Positions 171-26,841 of a stretch of 64,000 bases of DNA are shown piece by piece (positions within the stretch are counted from its first letter, which is position 1; each line of letters starts with the position of its first letter). The stretch is from a virus. The position numbers were made by a program, and so were the translations under genes. Location: the IMG/VR virus record IMGVR_UViG_3300028883_000036, positions 1 to 64,000 of that record. One strand, 5' to 3'. The notes under the pieces are model-generated. The model made no database searches. It was not told the DNA's origin and saw only the letters and a program-made list of their open reading frames with translations.

Positions 171-226
171 TTTTCTCCTTTTTCTTTTAACATTTTTAGT
201 TTATTTTTTATAAAAAAACAGAATAT

Positions 227-339
227 CAGGTTAAACATCTGACTTTTGCTCTACCGTTGAGCCATCTCCCTAAAGGCAGGGAGAGCAGGATTCGAACCTA
301 CAACCTAAAGTTTGGGATAGTGATTGCTGTAGTCAACCT
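227..339 (-). ncRNA. Y-RNA-like (YrlA-type) RNA: ACAGCAA stem enclosing a circularly permuted tRNA-mimic domain
   Basis: RNA AGGUUGA-CU-ACAGCAA...ACUUU-AGGUU-GUAGG-UUCGAAU-CCUGC-UCUCCCU-GCCUUU-AGGGAGA-UG-GCUC-AACGGUA-GAGC-A-AAAGU...UUAACCUG: T arm, loop-closed acceptor stem, D arm; no anticodon loop. Confidence 0.85.
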
Positions 340-401
340 TCCTTTCTGGATAAATGGTTATGGAAAGATGGAATAAGCTTTTCAATACTTTTCGCTTTTT
401 T

Positions 402-489
402 CAGGATGGAGTTACTTAGTAATTTACTAAGCATACCCATCTTTCCGTTTACGTTTCATGTCATAAGTTTTTTTTGCTGCACCCATCCT
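402..489 (-). ncRNA. RCAGCAA-stem RNA, copy 2
   Basis: AGGAUGG-GU-GCAGCAA...CCAUCCUG; terminal stem has compensatory changes relative to other copies; internal hairpin CUUAGUA-AAU-UACUAAG. Confidence 0.7.
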
Positions 490-650: not shown

Positions 651-676
651 TTTCTTTCCTTTCTTTATTCAATTTA

Positions 677-737
677 CAGGTTGATATCACCTTTTTTAGA
701 TTAAATGTCTAGTGGTTTTATTTGCTGTAATCAACCT
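677..737 (-). ncRNA. RCAGCAA-stem RNA, copy 3 (immediately downstream of DUF2828 gene)
   Basis: AGGUUGAU-U-ACAGCAA...UAGA-CAUUUAA-UCUA...AUCAACCUG; identical to 11166-11226. Confidence 0.75.
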
Positions 738-746
738 TTCAAACTA

Positions 747-2189
747 TTATTCACTTTTTGGAACTATTACTTCATACTTTTCCAATGCTCTCATCATAAT
801 AGCATATGGAGTAAAGTCTTCCCCACTAAATATTGCTTTACAGATAGATGGAGAAAATCCTGATACCAATCCAATATTATTACTATTTACTGTATCTGGT
901 GATCCATCATATGCCATTGTATTCCAATATACTATTTTAGGTCTTTTATATCCTGCATCTTCCCATTTCAACATACATTTTTCAACTTCTGTTAACAATT
1001 CATTTTTTCTAATACCATTTGTATCCCATCCCCCGCCCCAACAAGCACCTTGACTAAATTGCATATCAGATACAATCAATAGAGATGTAGGCATAAGTTG
1101 TTGTGAAATGTTCCTTTCAGTAGCAATTTTAAGAATCAAATCTAATGCTCTATCAATTCTTGTAGAAGCAACAGCATGGTCAAATACTTTCCTATCTCTA
1201 ATAGCAGTTCTAAAGGTATGTTTTCTCCAATCAACAAATTTACCTTCTGATCCAAAACCAATGAATCTTTTATAAAAAGGACTTTCTTTAGGAACTCTGC
1301 TTGAACAATATAGAGCCATACCTTGAGATACATGTATAGCCTGAACACTTCCACCTACTCTTGATATCATAGAACCTGAAGTATCGCAAATTACCATTAT
1401 ATTTTCATTAGTTCCTTCAAGATAATTAGGTAGAGCATTAAATTGTGCTTCAGCCATACTTTCATCACCATGCAAAGCAGTTCTTACACAATCATGAGGA
1501 AACAAAACATCAGCATGAACAGTAGTAGTTCCATTAGATAATGCTTCTTTATAAGCTTGGAACCTTATATTATCGTTTCTATCAAATGCTCTTGTGTATC
1601 TTGCCATAGCAACAGATGGAACTTTTTTATATTCAATTTTATTCCATTGCTGTTGACACATCATATGTTCAACAATATGATCTTTTCTGATATTTGACAA
1701 TAGTTTCCTAAATTCAGATTCTCTCATATTCAAGGCTTGTCTGATAGGTTTATAATGTTTTTTTGCCCATTTAGCAGCAAGAATATCACCTTCTTGAATA
1801 GCAGATGCCCAAAATTGCCCTGCTTCATTTCTTAAAGGAGTTTTAAACAATGCTGTAAGATCATCCCACCTTCCATGAACAGGGATAAAATGCATATTAG
1901 CTTGCATCAGAGCAGTATGGTTATTAGCAAGCCATTCAATTATAGCTTTTGCTCCACTTCTGTTTCCAGCACCACCCCTGCAATCTCTTACCCACATAAA
2001 CAGCTTCATAGAAGTAATAGGATCTTCTTTAAAAGCAGGTTGAAACAAACTCAAAGCAGTACCTTCATTTCTATTTCCATAAAAAGCAACTCTCCTTCCA
2101 CCAGTATACAAAGAACCCGCTTTTGAAAAAAAATCAACAGTTTTACTAATTGCATTTTTATATTGTTCTGCCCCTTCATGTGTTTTCAT
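747..2189 (-). CDS. DUF2828-family Ro60/TROVE-like protein with C-terminal vWA domain
   Basis: EDP..K....RD.RGGAG.R and GRWDDL motifs; vWA MIDAS DTSGSM, SDMQF, IVYWN, LVSGFSPS. Confidence 0.85.
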   Translation of the reverse strand: MKTHEGAEQYKNAISKTVDFFSKAGSLYTGGRRVAFYGNRNEGTALSLFQPAFKEDPITSMKLFMWVRDCRGGAGNRSGAKAIIEWLANNHTALMQANMHFIPVHGRWDDLTALFKTPLRNEAGQFWASAIQEGDILAAKWAKKHYKPIRQALNMRESEFRKLLSNIRKDHIVEHMMCQQQWNKIEYKKVPSVAMARYTRAFDRNDNIRFQAYKEALSNGTTTVHADVLFPHDCVRTALHGDESMAEAQFNALPNYLEGTNENIMVICDTSGSMISRVGGSVQAIHVSQGMALYCSSRVPKESPFYKRFIGFGSEGKFVDWRKHTFRTAIRDRKVFDHAVASTRIDRALDLILKIATERNISQQLMPTSLLIVSDMQFSQGACWGGGWDTNGIRKNELLTEVEKCMLKWEDAGYKRPKIVYWNTMAYDGSPDTVNSNNIGLVSGFSPSICKAIFSGEDFTPYAIMMRALEKYEVIVPKSE

Positions 2190-2294: not shown

Positions 2295-2323
2295 ATAATA
2301 CATTAAATAAAATATATTGTCAA
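2295..2323 (-). promoter_or_regulatory. sigma70-type promoter for RNA copy 4 / DUF2828 operon
   Basis: TTGACA-17 nt-TATTAT on minus strand. Confidence 0.7.
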
Positions 2324-2925
2324 GCATTTTTTCTTATATCGTAAATATTTTTTATCCAGTTATTATCTTTATCATCAAAAATAGTTTCATTTCGCATAAT
2401 TTTTGCCATTCTATCATATAATACAGTATATATAGCTGCTGCCAAATTCAAACAAAATGGACTTGGGATATACAAAAATCTTTGACAATGTTTTAAATAT
2501 ATTTGAGGTATTGATCCATCTTCAGGACCAAATACATAAACTGCATTTTCAGGATGAATAAAATTTGGTAGTAATTCAGCATTATGTCTTACTTCTACTG
2601 CTACAGGAATTACTTCTTTAGAGAACCTATTAAATGGATAACTATCATTTACTAATTGAACATGTTTATATCCCTTCATTCTTTCTTCTCTTGGAAGTCT
2701 ATACCCTTTTTTGTTCTTATCAGGTGTTAATGATACTCTATCTCCTGTAAATACAATAAGATTTGAATTGAAACATGAACATGCCCTAACTGCTGCTCCT
2801 ACATTATGAGGATATTTAGGATTATGCATAATAATAGCAGGAGTATTGGATTTATCAAAAAGTGTATCATCTTTTTTGATATGAATGTTATCCCCTAAAT
2901 TAAATTCAGGTGGCTTTTCTTTCAT
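2320..2925 (-). CDS. SpoU/TrmH-family (SPOUT) RNA 2'-O-methyltransferase
   Basis: P..PHNVGAAVRAC, VFGPEDGSI, IPSPFCLNLAAA motifs. Confidence 0.85.
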   Translation of the reverse strand: MKEKPPEFNLGDNIHIKKDDTLFDKSNTPAIIMHNPKYPHNVGAAVRACSCFNSNLIVFTGDRVSLTPDKNKKGYRLPREERMKGYKHVQLVNDSYPFNRFSKEVIPVAVEVRHNAELLPNFIHPENAVYVFGPEDGSIPQIYLKHCQRFLYIPSPFCLNLAAAIYTVLYDRMAKIMRNETIFDDKDNNWIKNIYDIRKNA

Positions 2926-6161: not shown

Positions 6162-6238
6162 TGGTAGCACCACAAGGATTTAAACCTTGGCTTTTCCGAT
6201 TATCAGTCGGATGTTTTAATCAGCTAAACTATGGTGCT
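6162..6238 (-). tRNA. tRNA-Ile(GAT)
   Basis: TCCGA-CTGATAA-TCGGA, CCA; atypical T loop TTTAAAT. Confidence 0.8.
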
Positions 6239-7374
6239 ATAATATCTTTATATTCATCTGATTTAGATATATATACATATTCTTTAGGAATACATAGTAT
6301 ATTAGAAATTTTATTTATAAATTCATTTTCATCTAAACAGTGAACTATTTCTCCTTTATATGTAAATCTATATTCATTTTCAATATGGTCTAAACATGTA
6401 ATAACTAATCTTATTGAACTATATTTATTTTTTTTAAAACATAATCCCATATCTTTCCAAATAGCATAAGTAAGTAAATCTGCATCTAGTAATGTTCTTC
6501 TAAATTTTCCTTGATAATTCTTTTTATTAGTTTCATTCGGATTCTTTATTATATTATGTCTTATATCCTCATTTAACATAGGTCCATTACCATGCCTTGT
6601 TTGATATGCTCTTGTTATGTAGAATATTTCATCAAGATCATCGTTAATAATATTAGCCCCTAAATTAGCTCTTGTTACATGAGGAAAAAAACCAATATTT
6701 TTATCTAACAATAGTCCTTGTGAACCTTCATATATGATATCATTATATTGACCACAATCATGTAATTTTACTTCTTCTATACTATTAACAATGAATATTT
6801 TATCTATTACTTCTTTACAATCTTTAAGAAAAAATTCATATTCTGCCAAACAATCTATGTCTTCATCTTGATTATAGTAATCCATTATCATTTTTAATTT
6901 GATTTCTGTTATAGAAGGAAAAAGCAAATCTTCTACTAATAAAGAATAATGTTTTTCTTCTCTTTCAAGTGTAGCACCAAAACCTACACCGCAACTTCCA
7001 TGTTGATTTTTTCCTTCTATTTTTTTGTTATATAATACATCAAAAAAAGTAGTTACAGGACATTTTCCATTAACAAATATTTTAGGTTCAATTCCTTTTT
7101 GTTCTAATACATTTAATTCATTTAAAAAAGCAACAGGATAAAAGGTACAATTTTCAGACCAATAAGTAGGAACATTTTGTAATGTACCACTACCAAATGA
7201 TGAAAATACATGTCTTATTCCATTATGAACTACAGTATGACCTGCTTGATGCCCACCTGAAAATCTAACTACAATTGGATTATTGGAGATAGAACATAAA
7301 TAAGCAGTAAACATGCCTTTGCCACTATCTCCAAAACCTAAATCAATAACAGTTTTTTTCATTACAATCCTCAA
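6229..7374 (-). CDS. purA: adenylosuccinate synthetase-like protein
   Basis: DLGFGDSGKG, RFSGGHQAGHT, GSCGVG, EGSQG, TRAYQTRHGNGP. Confidence 0.85.
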   Translation of the reverse strand: MRIVMKKTVIDLGFGDSGKGMFTAYLCSISNNPIVVRFSGGHQAGHTVVHNGIRHVFSSFGSGTLQNVPTYWSENCTFYPVAFLNELNVLEQKGIEPKIFVNGKCPVTTFFDVLYNKKIEGKNQHGSCGVGFGATLEREEKHYSLLVEDLLFPSITEIKLKMIMDYYNQDEDIDCLAEYEFFLKDCKEVIDKIFIVNSIEEVKLHDCGQYNDIIYEGSQGLLLDKNIGFFPHVTRANLGANIINDDLDEIFYITRAYQTRHGNGPMLNEDIRHNIIKNPNETNKKNYQGKFRRTLLDADLLTYAIWKDMGLCFKKNKYSSIRLVITCLDHIENEYRFTYKGEIVHCLDENEFINKISNILCIPKEYVYISKSDEYKDIIAP

Positions 7375-11165: not shown

Positions 11166-11226
11166 CAGGTTGATATCACCTTTTTTAGATTAAATGTCTA
11201 GTGGTTTTATTTGCTGTAATCAACCT
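11166..11226 (-). ncRNA. RCAGCAA-stem RNA, copy 5 (identical to copy 3)
   Basis: exact duplicate of 677-737, between tRNA-Arg and the PNK RBS. Confidence 0.75.
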
Positions 11227-23098: not shown

Positions 23099-23427
23099 AA
23101 AATAAAAATTGGGGTCAAAAAAATGGCTCAACATAGACTAAAATGTATGTTATAATCAGAAAAGATATACCTAAAATTCATCAAGCTGTTCAAGGTGGAC
23201 ATGCTTTAGCGGAATATCTTTTAAATGAATCAACATCTTGGACTAACGGAACTTTAATCTATTTGGGTATTAAAGGACTAAATCAGATTGAGAATTTAAA
23301 ATATAAATTTGATTCAGAAGGGATACCTTATAGAGAGTTTAGAGAACCTGATCTTGATAATCAAATAACGTCAATAGCAACAGATACAAAAAATAAGTAT
23401 ATAAAAAAACTAAACTTATTGGCTTGA
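23095..23427 (+). CDS. peptidyl-tRNA hydrolase 2-like protein with in-frame TAG (23134-23136)
   Basis: MYVIIRKD...AVQGGHA...FREPDLDNQITSIAT; ATG 23095 has GAAAGGA RBS and ATGA overlap and is in frame through one TAG. Confidence 0.75.
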
Positions 23428-23689: not shown

Positions 23690-25000
23690 ATGACTGACTC
23701 AATCATTATCGAAAAAATTGATATCCCTGTTGCCAAAAAAAATTACCTTCAGACCAAAATTGACAAGATCAATCGTAAAGCCAAAAAAATGGGTTGTGAA
23801 CCCTTGGTTTTGGTTTTTGATAATGAACATGTTTACACATATAATGTTGATCATTATACAGGTGCGAAATTGGCATTCCCACGACACATTGATATGTGTA
23901 CTGCTAATTTAATCTATCAAATTCCTATCATTGAAGGATATGAGTTGATTGCAAGATTGGATATCTATCCTACTGTTGATGGTGGAAATGAAGTCATGGT
24001 TTCTGCTGTTCCTGAAAAGAAAGTTCCTGCCAAATATATGAACAAAACCGAAATTCACTGTGATCATTGTGGATGGAAACGTAATCGGAACCATTCCATT
24101 TTGCTGCAACATACGGAAACTGGTGAATATAAAGAAGTTGGTTCGACTTGTGTTAAAGATTTTTTTGGAATTGATCCCAAAGGTTTCATGCTCATGGCAA
24201 GTATCAAGTTTGATGAACTTATCAATGGCATTGATACTGATGATAGATATCAGAATGAAATGAAAAATTCTGGTGGGTATGATATAATTGAAGTTTTTGC
24301 TGTATCTGCTGCTGCTATTGCCAAATGGGGATGGTTGAGTAAAGGTAAAGCTTGGGAACTGAATAAAGAATATGATGCATCTTATATATCTACTGCATCC
24401 CATGTTATTGATAATCTTGATAGAGAGTCTGCTTATTATGCCAAAATGGATGATTCTCTGAAAGTTCACATTGAAAATGAAGACATTGAACTTGCAAAAA
24501 AAGTTTATGAATATTTTACTAATCTTGATCCTAAAAATAATGATTATTTAATCAATTGCTGTAAAATTATTCGAATTGGTTATGTACCTTATAATCATAT
24601 TGGTATTACCTGTTCAATGGTTTCTGCATACAATCGTGAAATTGCTAAAATTGAAAAAATTGAAGCTGATAAAAAATCTGGTGAAGTTGTTTCTGAATGG
24701 CAAGGTGCTGTAGGTCAACGTCTTAAAGACATCACAGTTGAATGCACCTATACCAGAACTTTTCAAAATGATTTTGGTGAACAAACTCTCTATGCTTTTA
24801 AAGATGCAAATGGAAATGTATATAAGACTTTTTACAGTGGATATAAATGGTCTTGTGAAGTTGGTGATATTGTCATGATTACGGGAACTGTTAAAAAACA
24901 TAACGAATTTCAGGGAAAAAAAGAAACCATGATGAATCGTGTAGTTACCAAAGATGCTCCTTCAGAGGCATTTGCTGCCAATGAATTTGTAATTGCATAA
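23690..25000 (+). CDS. conserved large-phage protein with Zn-finger and C-terminal OB-fold
   Basis: CDHC...R.R...VGSTC; C-term GDIVMITGTVKKHNEFQGKKETMMNRV; GGGGG RBS. Confidence 0.7.
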   Translation: MTDSIIIEKIDIPVAKKNYLQTKIDKINRKAKKMGCEPLVLVFDNEHVYTYNVDHYTGAKLAFPRHIDMCTANLIYQIPIIEGYELIARLDIYPTVDGGNEVMVSAVPEKKVPAKYMNKTEIHCDHCGWKRNRNHSILLQHTETGEYKEVGSTCVKDFFGIDPKGFMLMASIKFDELINGIDTDDRYQNEMKNSGGYDIIEVFAVSAAAIAKWGWLSKGKAWELNKEYDASYISTASHVIDNLDRESAYYAKMDDSLKVHIENEDIELAKKVYEYFTNLDPKNNDYLINCCKIIRIGYVPYNHIGITCSMVSAYNREIAKIEKIEADKKSGEVVSEWQGAVGQRLKDITVECTYTRTFQNDFGEQTLYAFKDANGNVYKTFYSGYKWSCEVGDIVMITGTVKKHNEFQGKKETMMNRVVTKDAPSEAFAANEFVIA

Positions 25001-26738: not shown

Positions 26739-26758
26739 TATTTTAGAATTTATTATTA

Positions 26759-26815
26759 AGGTTGATTACAGCAATCATAAATAGACTATAAATCTAACAT
26801 TAAAATATCAACCTG
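26759..26815 (+). ncRNA. RCAGCAA-stem RNA, copy 6
   Basis: AGGUUGAU-U-ACAGCAA...UAGA-CUAUAAA-UCUA...AUCAACCUG. Confidence 0.75.
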
Positions 26816-26841
26816 TTTTATAATCTAAAAATGGGGGAATA

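Follow-up and report, generated by a model that had tools for sequence, protein, structure and literature searches.

The DNA considered here comprises the first 64,000 nucleotides (nt) of IMG/VR virus record IMGVR_UViG_3300028883_000036, and this whole stretch is referred to as the window. The record is a phage sequence of 107.6 kilobases (kb) with an estimated completeness of about 51% and originates from a marine-sediment metagenome. The phage genome is A+T-rich, and its available half carries 13 canonical transfer RNA (tRNA) genes, including a CUA suppressor. Near the start of the window, on the minus strand, lies an element that can be read as a small RNA in which a conserved terminal structure, the handle, is joined to a complete tRNA in circularly permuted order. 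The gene that ends at position 747 is read from the same strand, about 400 nt upstream of the element with respect to transcription, and encodes a DUF2828 protein with a predicted Ro60 fold. In the order of transcription, the element is made up as follows (bp, base pairs).

226-340, minus strand: whole RNA element of about 115 nt, read as handle plus circularly permuted tRNA body, from a full-length match to covariance model R1
333-338, minus strand: 5' strand GGUUGA of the terminal (handle) stem, preceded by AA; pairs with 229-234, one G-U pair included
324-330, minus strand: single-stranded handle motif ACAGCAA, 2 nt (CU) past the stem, by sequence reading
312-318, minus strand: AUCCCAA, seven anticodon-loop-like nucleotides (U33, CCC, A37) with an open 5' side, from in-silico rotation and linker controls
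307-311, minus strand: anticodon-stem 3' strand ACUUU (nt 39-43), with 5/5 pairs to 242-246
302-306, minus strand: variable loop AGGUU, of which U48 could form a Levitt pair with A15, by sequence reading
285-301, minus strand: T arm GUAGG-UUCGAAU-CCUGC, from the centroid fold and the YrlA alignment
265-284, minus strand: acceptor stem of 7 bp, UCUCCCU (284-278) with AGGGAGA (271-265), from the centroid fold
272-277, minus strand: acceptor-closing loop GCCUUU (G73, CC, then UUU), from the centroid fold
263-264, minus strand: U8 and G9, by sequence reading
248-262, minus strand: D arm GCUC-AACGGUA-GAGC (A14, A15, G18, G19, A21), from the centroid fold and alignment
247, minus strand: A26, by sequence reading
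242-246, minus strand: anticodon-stem 5' strand AAAGU (nt 27-31), pairing with 307-311
227-234, minus strand: 3' strand UUAACC of the terminal stem (234-229), followed by a conserved UG; pairs with 333-338

A linker of 5 nt separates ACAGCAA from AUCCCAA, and one of 7 nt lies between AAAGU and the 3' strand of the terminal stem. The original prediction had described a permuted order of parts at 227-339, and in the minus-strand reading of 226-340 every part it listed was found in its place. It had also held that the anticodon loop is replaced by the docking stem, which proved incorrect: AUCCCAA (318-312, with U33 and A37) is kept ahead of the anticodon-stem 3' strand. The match of the D and T arms to those of the suppressor tRNA at 23421 that had been pointed out is real (14 of 15 positions in the D arm) but generic and indicates no special kinship; a GCUC-A..GG.A-GAGC arm recurs in dozens of elements of unrelated phages and in the tRNA-Ile(UAU) of the window itself.

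The evidence that the element is real is comparative. Related phage loci were sampled in two sets: 79 were retrieved solely through homologues of the neighbouring protein and 80 solely through an RNA pattern. A strict descriptor consisting of the T arm, a closed acceptor stem of 7 bp, the D arm and a split anticodon stem matched six times in the real loci, whereas five shuffles gave no match. The background of a relaxed descriptor was high (about 24 matches in shuffles), and the counts given here use strict or handle-anchored matches only. A set of 57 non-redundant elements, all permuted, full-length and 114-140 nt long, was obtained from other phage contigs with the handle-anchored search. 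Covariance model R1 was built from 51 of these 57, with the window element and its closest relative, from locus L003, left out. It matched 226-340 on the minus strand with 84.8 bits and an E value of 1.1e-14 over model positions 1-124 of 124; the next matches in the window were short sibling hairpins with at most 31 bits and tRNAs with at most 28 bits.

Pairing and covariation of the helices were counted in an alignment of 13 sequences. Pairs were formed in 98.5% of the cells of the T helix, 96.7% of those of the acceptor stem and 86.5% of those of the D helix, percentages that are partly built in by the choice of sequences, and both-sided changes occurred in 19 of the 21 pairs of these three helices. 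The observed covariation score was reached by none of 500 shuffles. Both-sided changes were present in four of the five T-helix pairs and compensatory changes in all seven acceptor-stem pairs. The descriptor places no constraint on the tertiary Levitt pair 15:48, so that covariation at this pair is free of selection bias. It is G:C in 42 and A:U in 32 elements (74 of 93), as against five purine/pyrimidine mismatches; in the window element it would be A15:U48. U8 was found in 81 of the 93 elements. A second observation free of this bias comes from the likely ortholog in L003 (4737-4868). Its handle starts alike and it shares AUCCCAA, while compensatory changes distinguish its T, acceptor and anticodon stems, the last of which adjoins AUCCCAA, from those of the window element. 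The window element is more than a chance arrangement, and the original observation is confirmed.

To examine the anticodon arm, the element was rotated in silico by cutting the acceptor loop and joining nt 31 to nt 32. ARAGORN reads the product as a tRNA-Gly(CCC) of 75 nt with a 7/4/5/5-bp cloverleaf. The chain ends lie at nt 31/32, which is also where the handle joins the body. Raw ARAGORN calls on rotated elements do not discriminate (57/57 real elements versus about 42/57 with shuffled linkers) and were not relied on. A perfect anticodon stem (5/5 bp) is present in 47 of the 57 elements, versus 4-7 with shuffled linkers, and U33 together with a purine at 37 in 44, versus 5-11. The mimicked anticodons of the 57 elements are diverse, UGU (seven) and UUU (six) being the commonest, with GAU, UCC, UGG and others. 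Since the anticodon-loop segment and the features of a cloverleaf are kept across the family, the body of the RNA is a complete circularly permuted tRNA with the handle emerging from its anticodon arm.

The chain of many relatives is interrupted within the anticodon-stem 5' strand, frequently at 29/30, which leaves the anticodon hairpin closed. Such a closed hairpin occurs in most of the 57 elements (for example L107 6431-6547, L170 1335-1450 and L116 302-422). The acceptor loop opens with a discriminator followed by CCA (N-CCA) in 14 of 93 elements versus an expected one or two, and with G-CC-UUU in the window element. These loops suggest that, in at least some phages, the acceptor loop may be opened to give a real CCA end. 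Instances of N-CCA loops are L089 9804-9934 (minus strand), L120 564-696, L106 10490-10621 and L018 2005-2125. Redundancy of anticodons was considered in four complete phage genomes, where permuted elements duplicate a canonical anticodon in two cases, UCC in genome G011 and UCU in genome G032; a scan for normal-order forms with an insert was too noisy and was not used.

The handle can be defined as AAG, a terminal stem of 6-7 bp, two nucleotides and ACAGCAA; on the 3' side, (C)UG comes after the second strand of the stem. The window element has the terminal stem, the flanks and ACAGCAA 2 nt after the 5' strand, in agreement with this definition. Covariation of this stem is seen among sibling RNAs and in other phages, and the CAGCA centre of the motif is nearly invariant in an alignment of 51 sequences. 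Five more handle RNAs occur in the window, three of which flank the gene at 747-2189. These features are as follows.

402-489, minus strand: sibling handle RNA with an AGGAUGG stem and GCAGCAA, lacking a tRNA body, by sequence reading
676-738, minus strand: sibling handle hairpin of 60 nt just downstream of the DUF2828 gene, 30.9 bits on R1
747-2189, minus strand: gene for a DUF2828 + DUF7788 protein of 480 residues, the presumed partner of the RNA, assigned by Pfam PF11443 and PF25043
2213-2277, minus strand: sibling handle hairpin just upstream of the DUF2828 gene, 24.4 bits on R1
2295-2323, minus strand: promoter-like site TTGACA-17-TATTAT, matching 11 of 12 positions in a consensus scan only
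11166-11226, minus strand: short handle hairpin distant from the DUF2828 gene, from handle reading and R1
26758-26816, plus strand: short handle hairpin distant from the DUF2828 gene, from handle reading and R1

One and the same handle occurs on stand-alone hairpins of 50-65 nt, on RNAs whose sole tRNA part is a T arm, on permuted tRNAs and on tRNAs of normal order, a modularity that resembles that of Y RNAs. The normal-order tRNAs are found in other phages and bear the handle at the corresponding site of the anticodon stem, as a capped hairpin some 40 nt long. ARAGORN reports these as intron-bearing and its anticodon assignments for them are unreliable. They often stand in tandem adjoining the DUF2828 gene, and cases were seen at L051 4831-4942 and 5078-5190, L052 4536-5056, L035 4540-4662 and L067 4538-5036. 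No Rfam family covers the handle RNAs, a scan of the window at Rfam gathering thresholds returned ten tRNAs and nothing else, and no description of handle RNAs was found in the literature on phage Ro60 and Y RNA.

The handle RNAs are linked to the DUF2828 gene. In most of the 79 protein-anchored loci they flank the DUF2828 homologue, mostly on the same strand, and all 63 R1 matches in these loci lie on the strand of the DUF2828 gene. Among the 80 loci anchored on the RNA pattern, 18 contain a DUF2828 gene; it is co-oriented in 18/18 and within 750 nt in 13/18. In 23 of 48 further RNA-pattern records the gene is found elsewhere in the record. A cultured phage, the Salmonella phage Felix O1, carries an unannotated permuted tRNA-bodied handle RNA (NC_005282.1, about 24579-24706; L239 6423-6550; 69 bits on R1) within a tRNA array, about 1 kb downstream of a gene for a DUF2828-type 'RNA-binding protein', and is thus available as a model. 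Related DUF2828 loci also contain dense tRNA arrays that surround the gene for the Ro60-like protein, and a phage transfer-messenger RNA (tmRNA) gene (168 bits in L064; L064 398-765; L010 1415-1495).

The presumed partner protein is predicted to consist of a ring and a vWA domain with a DxSxS metal ion-dependent adhesion site (MIDAS) motif. The AlphaFold model, made with an alignment of 36 sequences, has a predicted local distance difference test score (pLDDT) of 85. In a Foldseek search of the PDB with this model the top 11 hits were all Ro60. VIA-align gave a Z score of 23.0 with Xenopus Ro60, with a root-mean-square deviation of 4.0 Å over 410 aligned residues of the predicted model, whereas unrelated proteins sharing only the vWA domain reached at most 8.4. 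The MIDAS residues D269, S271 and S273 are invariant in the homologue alignment. Thus, the DUF2828/DUF7788 protein is predicted to have the Ro60 fold over its whole chain.

At the sequence level this likeness is faint. Identity to Ro60 is 10-16%, Pfam hits of the 480-residue protein are limited to PF11443 and PF25043 with no TROVE domain, a sequence profile of the protein found no match among PDB chains, and hhalign against one TROVE protein gave a probability of only 25.6%. The search for related loci returned nothing with a single protein query and needed an alignment as query. DUF2828 proteins are nevertheless numerous, with more than 5,000 hits in a protein search and homologues in 693 sequenced phage GenBank records (Felix O1-like phages, mycobacteriophages, phages of Listeria, Staphylococcus, Campylobacter and Vibrio, and others); the protein atlas for the DUF2828 protein lists viral clusters only. 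Some homologues are annotated in GenBank as 'hypothetical', others, at the opposite end of the range, as 'Ro-like RNA binding protein', and because annotators use the latter name the likeness of the protein to Ro60 is partly known in practice. A full-text literature search found no paper on the function of DUF2828. The original prediction regarded the RNA as the strongest single argument that the DUF2828 family is an analogue of Ro60. The analogy is supported by the present data, with the predicted fold of the protein as the stronger argument.

The surroundings of this unit provide some further observations. Apart from the promoter-like site at 2323-2295, which could drive the unit of handle RNAs and DUF2828 gene, the promoter scan was close to background. 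The consensus scan found no promoter-like site directly upstream of the element at 226-340 (minus strand), and a terminator scan found no terminator-like site. Directly upstream of the promoter-like site lies a gene for a SpoU-family RNA 2'-O-methyltransferase (2320-2925, minus strand), which could modify the phage tRNAs or the permuted tRNA mimic. Other neighbouring genes encode AAA domains and an adenylosuccinate-synthetase-like protein (6220-7374, minus strand); the latter gene contains an in-frame TAG, which is read as a residue under the suppressor, and its product could be a PurZ-type enzyme. Annotation of the neighbouring genes, including Pfam, revealed no RNA ligase, nuclease or kinase gene. 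Among the runs listed with matching DNA there were no RNA sequencing runs, only DNA runs of marine and other sediment metagenomes.

From the anatomy of the element, its genomic linkage and precedent we infer that it is probably a tRNA-mimicking partner RNA of a Ro60-like protein, and thereby an undescribed relative of the Ro60/Y RNA particle. The element would be expressed as a stable non-coding RNA; among the small RNAs that have the handle in common, it is the family member with a tRNA body. Most likely the handle would act as a docking site for the Ro60-like DUF2828/vWA protein, in the same way as Y RNAs dock on Ro60 through their terminal stem. The permuted tRNA body, with its acceptor stem closed by a loop and its ends at nt 31/32, would fold to the L-shape of a tRNA. 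In this manner the particle may present a tRNA look-alike to modification and end-processing enzymes, to exonucleases or to tRNA-targeting nucleases, a role like that which YrlA is thought to play for bacterial Ro60. As in YrlA of Mycobacterium smegmatis, RNase P might open the acceptor loop G73-CC-UUU, and a CCA-adding enzyme might complete the end after trimming.

Several findings weigh against this assignment. Single-sequence folding of the minus strand gave a minimum free energy not better than that of shuffles (z -0.45); in the minimum free energy fold the handle is mispaired, the T, acceptor and D hairpins being retained in the centroid only, and folding of the plus strand was no better. 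Thermodynamic folding by itself is not significant. Support for the element is comparative, and the set used for covariation was selected by a descriptor that demands pairing. The sequence of the handle is unrelated to GNCGAAN0-1G or GGUCCGA, by which Y RNAs bind Ro60, and this leaves genomic linkage as the sole argument for docking. A DUF2828 gene is missing from about half of the RNA-pattern records; many of these are fragments, and 5 of 17 near-complete RNA-pattern records also show no DUF2828 match. Finally, most relatives keep the anticodon arm and some have N-CCA loops. A scaffold needs neither, and a tRNA precursor or a decoy would explain them equally well.

In view of the latter, the element could be the gene of a permuted tRNA precursor. 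The handle would then be an intron-like processing signal, the ends would be cut and joined at 31/32, RNase P would open the acceptor loop, and trimming and CCA addition would give a working tRNA-Gly(CCC), with the Ro60-like protein as a platform for maturation. The perfect cloverleaf of 75 nt that rotation yields, including U33 and A37, agrees with this scenario, as do the intact anticodon stems (47/57) and U33 with purine 37 (44/57) far above shuffled linkers, the excess of N-CCA loop starts (14/93 versus about one or two expected, with G-CC in the window element) and the handle inserts of some 40 nt that occupy the corresponding position in normal-order tRNAs of other phages. A canonical tRNA-Gly is moreover missing among the 13 canonical tRNAs in the available half of the genome. 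Yet an endonuclease or ligase for the nt 31/32 step is not known from bacteria, and genes for such enzymes were not seen beside the element. Where the ends meet there is a 6-bp stem followed by an internal loop that is large and asymmetric, and no bulge-helix-bulge. The handle is shared by RNAs without a tRNA part or with only a T arm, from which no tRNA can be produced. Permuted elements duplicate canonical anticodons in two complete genomes (UCC in G011, UCU in G032), and A1:U72 with G73 is not known to be the bacterial glycine identity set. Maturation to a working tRNA is therefore considered unlikely. We would hold a wider proposal to be slightly more doubtful still, in which the handle is excised, nt 31 and 32 are joined, the loop is opened and provided with CCA on the DUF2828 protein, and the free handle RNAs have relatives in the Dictyostelium Class I RNAs; if true, it would mean that phages of bacteria possess a protein-dependent pathway of tRNA un-permutation and splicing.

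The whole-tRNA mimic could also serve as bait that absorbs or senses host defence nucleases directed at tRNAs, or other tRNA-binding factors, with handle and protein protecting or positioning it. This possibility also has a low probability and differs less from the preferred one, since it describes a possible function of the same particle and not a different object. Family-wide conservation of anticodon-loop features, with UGU (7) and UUU (6) as the commonest anticodons, would suit a bait, the lysine UUU anticodon being a known nuclease target, and the elements sit within phage tRNA arrays. However, the anticodon loop of the window element is open at its 5' side, which makes it a poor substrate mimic, and no defence or counter-defence gene is linked. 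Less probable still is a purely cis-acting part of the DUF2828 transcript, such as a tRNA-like processing or stability signal or a substitute for a terminator, with no role as a free RNA. Such elements are also found far from DUF2828 genes, including those at 11166-11226 and 26758-26816, no terminator-like site was detected in the scan, and the conservation of tertiary-pair nucleotides exceeds what a cleavage signal needs, even though the element is downstream of the DUF2828 gene in the same orientation, has no promoter-like site of its own directly upstream and is followed by a run of seven U 10 nt past the stem. A decaying, functionless leftover of rearranged tRNA genes is hardly credible in view of 57 non-redundant copies in unrelated phages with intact stems and compensatory changes, the leave-one-out score of 84.8 bits and the conserved structure of the ortholog.

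Ro60 with its Y RNAs is a classic RNA-surveillance particle, and its bacterial form uses a tRNA mimic for a purpose that is still unclear. The partnership with the DUF2828 protein proposed here would point to a second, very large branch of this system, with an RNA handle of its own and with RNA partners that are whole tRNAs with swapped halves. The DUF2828 family of unknown function would gain a candidate ligand and dozens of unannotated phage RNAs a name, and tractable models would become available to study the role of a tRNA-shaped appendage in a Ro-type particle. In addition, the orphan Class I RNAs of social amoebae would be linked to a family of candidate protein partners.

YrlA is among the most similar known systems. 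It is bound by bacterial and mycobacteriophage Ro60/Rsr. As in YrlA, the ends of the element meet in a terminal stem that encloses a variable region, a T arm, a loop-closed acceptor stem and a D arm; the nucleotides of tertiary pairs are kept, including the covariation at 15:48; and the RNA lies on the same strand as, and less than 4 kb from, a gene for a protein with a predicted Ro60 fold, accompanied by shorter sibling RNAs that may be compared to YrlB. The 7-bp acceptor stem with a CCA-like loop also resembles that of M. smegmatis YrlA, the acceptor of which is cleaved by RNase P and subject to CCA processing (Chen et al. 2014, PMC4201824). The YrlA architecture that had been claimed is thus present as regards the T arm, the loop-closed acceptor stem, the D arm and the ends in a separate stem, but membership of YrlA is not supported. 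The search with YrlA models that had been proposed as a check gave a local cmscan match to Rfam YrlA (RF02553) confined to the tRNA-like core (model positions 23-85), and its 32.0 bits (E 1.9e-4) remain below the gathering threshold of 69 bits. The motif GNCGAAN0-1G near the 5' end of YrlA is the proposed contact with Ro60 (Chen et al. 2014, PMC4201824). It does not occur near the 5' end of the element, which reads AAGGUUGACUACAGCAAUC, and the only CGAA of the element is in the T loop. Instead, the docking motif here would be AAG-stem-NN-ACAGCAA...stem-UG. Further differences from YrlA are the retention of an anticodon-loop-like segment, and in most relatives of the whole anticodon arm, and the partner, which for YrlA is a TROVE protein and here the same-strand neighbour at 747-2189, a DUF2828 + DUF7788 protein with no TROVE hit for which the Ro60 fold is predicted (Z 23.0).

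A control is provided by Streptomyces phage BRock, which was encountered through a blastn match. Two unannotated RNAs just upstream of its Pfam-TROVE Ro60 gene score 32.8 and 32.4 bits with Rfam YrlA, so that the core of the window element is as YrlA-like as those of RNAs linked to TROVE. The tRNA-like cores of the BRock RNAs score 55-68 bits on R1, which indicates that the two RNA classes have almost interchangeable cores. The RNAs are at L082 2642-2747 and 2985-3121 (both minus strand), upstream of the TROVE-type gp191, where two shorter repeats sharing GAUGCG(N)AGA are also found. Because its handle differs from the Ro60-binding motif and its partner is from another Pfam family, the element is, as far as can be judged from sequence, best described as an analogue of YrlA and not as a member.

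Class I RNAs of Dictyostelium (RF01414) show similarity to the handle. They are defined by an AAG start, a 6-bp stem, an 11-nt motif ending in ACAGCAA, and a CUGU end, and are considered unique to dictyostelids (Kjellin et al. 2021, PMC7919456). The AAG start, the covarying 6-bp stem that joins the ends, the motif (CC)UUACAGCAA beside the 5' strand and the CUG(U) end are shared features, and the handle of the window element consists of AAG, a 6-bp stem, CUACAGCAA and CCUGA. The short handle hairpins of 55-65 nt (AAG, a 6-7 bp stem, UUACAGCAA, a variable part, the stem and CUGU) fit the Class I definition. With a gathering score of 41.5, RF01414 gave 32.5 bits for the handle hairpin at L064 2426-2482 and 22.6 bits (E 0.4) for the sibling at 677-736, the sole match in the window; the 115-nt element itself was not matched. 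In contrast to the phage element of 115 nt, Class I RNAs are eukaryotic, measure 42-65 nt, have a Dictyostelium upstream sequence element (DUSE) promoter and lack a tRNA body. Their known binder is the RNA recognition motif (RRM) protein Rnp1A, and Avesson and co-workers in 2011 reportedly found other Class I RNA-binding proteins.

Permuted tRNA genes of the Cyanidioschyzon merolae type mature into working tRNAs via a bulge-helix-bulge and the archaeal/eukaryal splicing machinery. In these genes, and also in the bacterial genes for permuted two-piece tmRNA, the 3' half precedes the 5' half and the halves are joined at the acceptor end by a short sequence that may start with CCA. The window element shares this order and gives a full cloverleaf after rotation. 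By reading, its ends contain no bulge-helix-bulge and no 3-nt bulges around a 4-bp helix; they have a 6-bp stem and an internal loop with strands of about 21 nt and 7 nt. They differ from those of permuted tRNA genes in carrying a conserved, protein-linked handle that is also present on RNAs without tRNA parts. The presumed partner protein, in turn, differs from Ro60/Rsr (TROVE + vWA), including the Ro60 of Thermus phage phiLo (PMC12135203; PDB 9l5y), by the lack of a Pfam TROVE hit and by its low identity, and shares with them the predicted whole-chain fold and the MIDAS motif.

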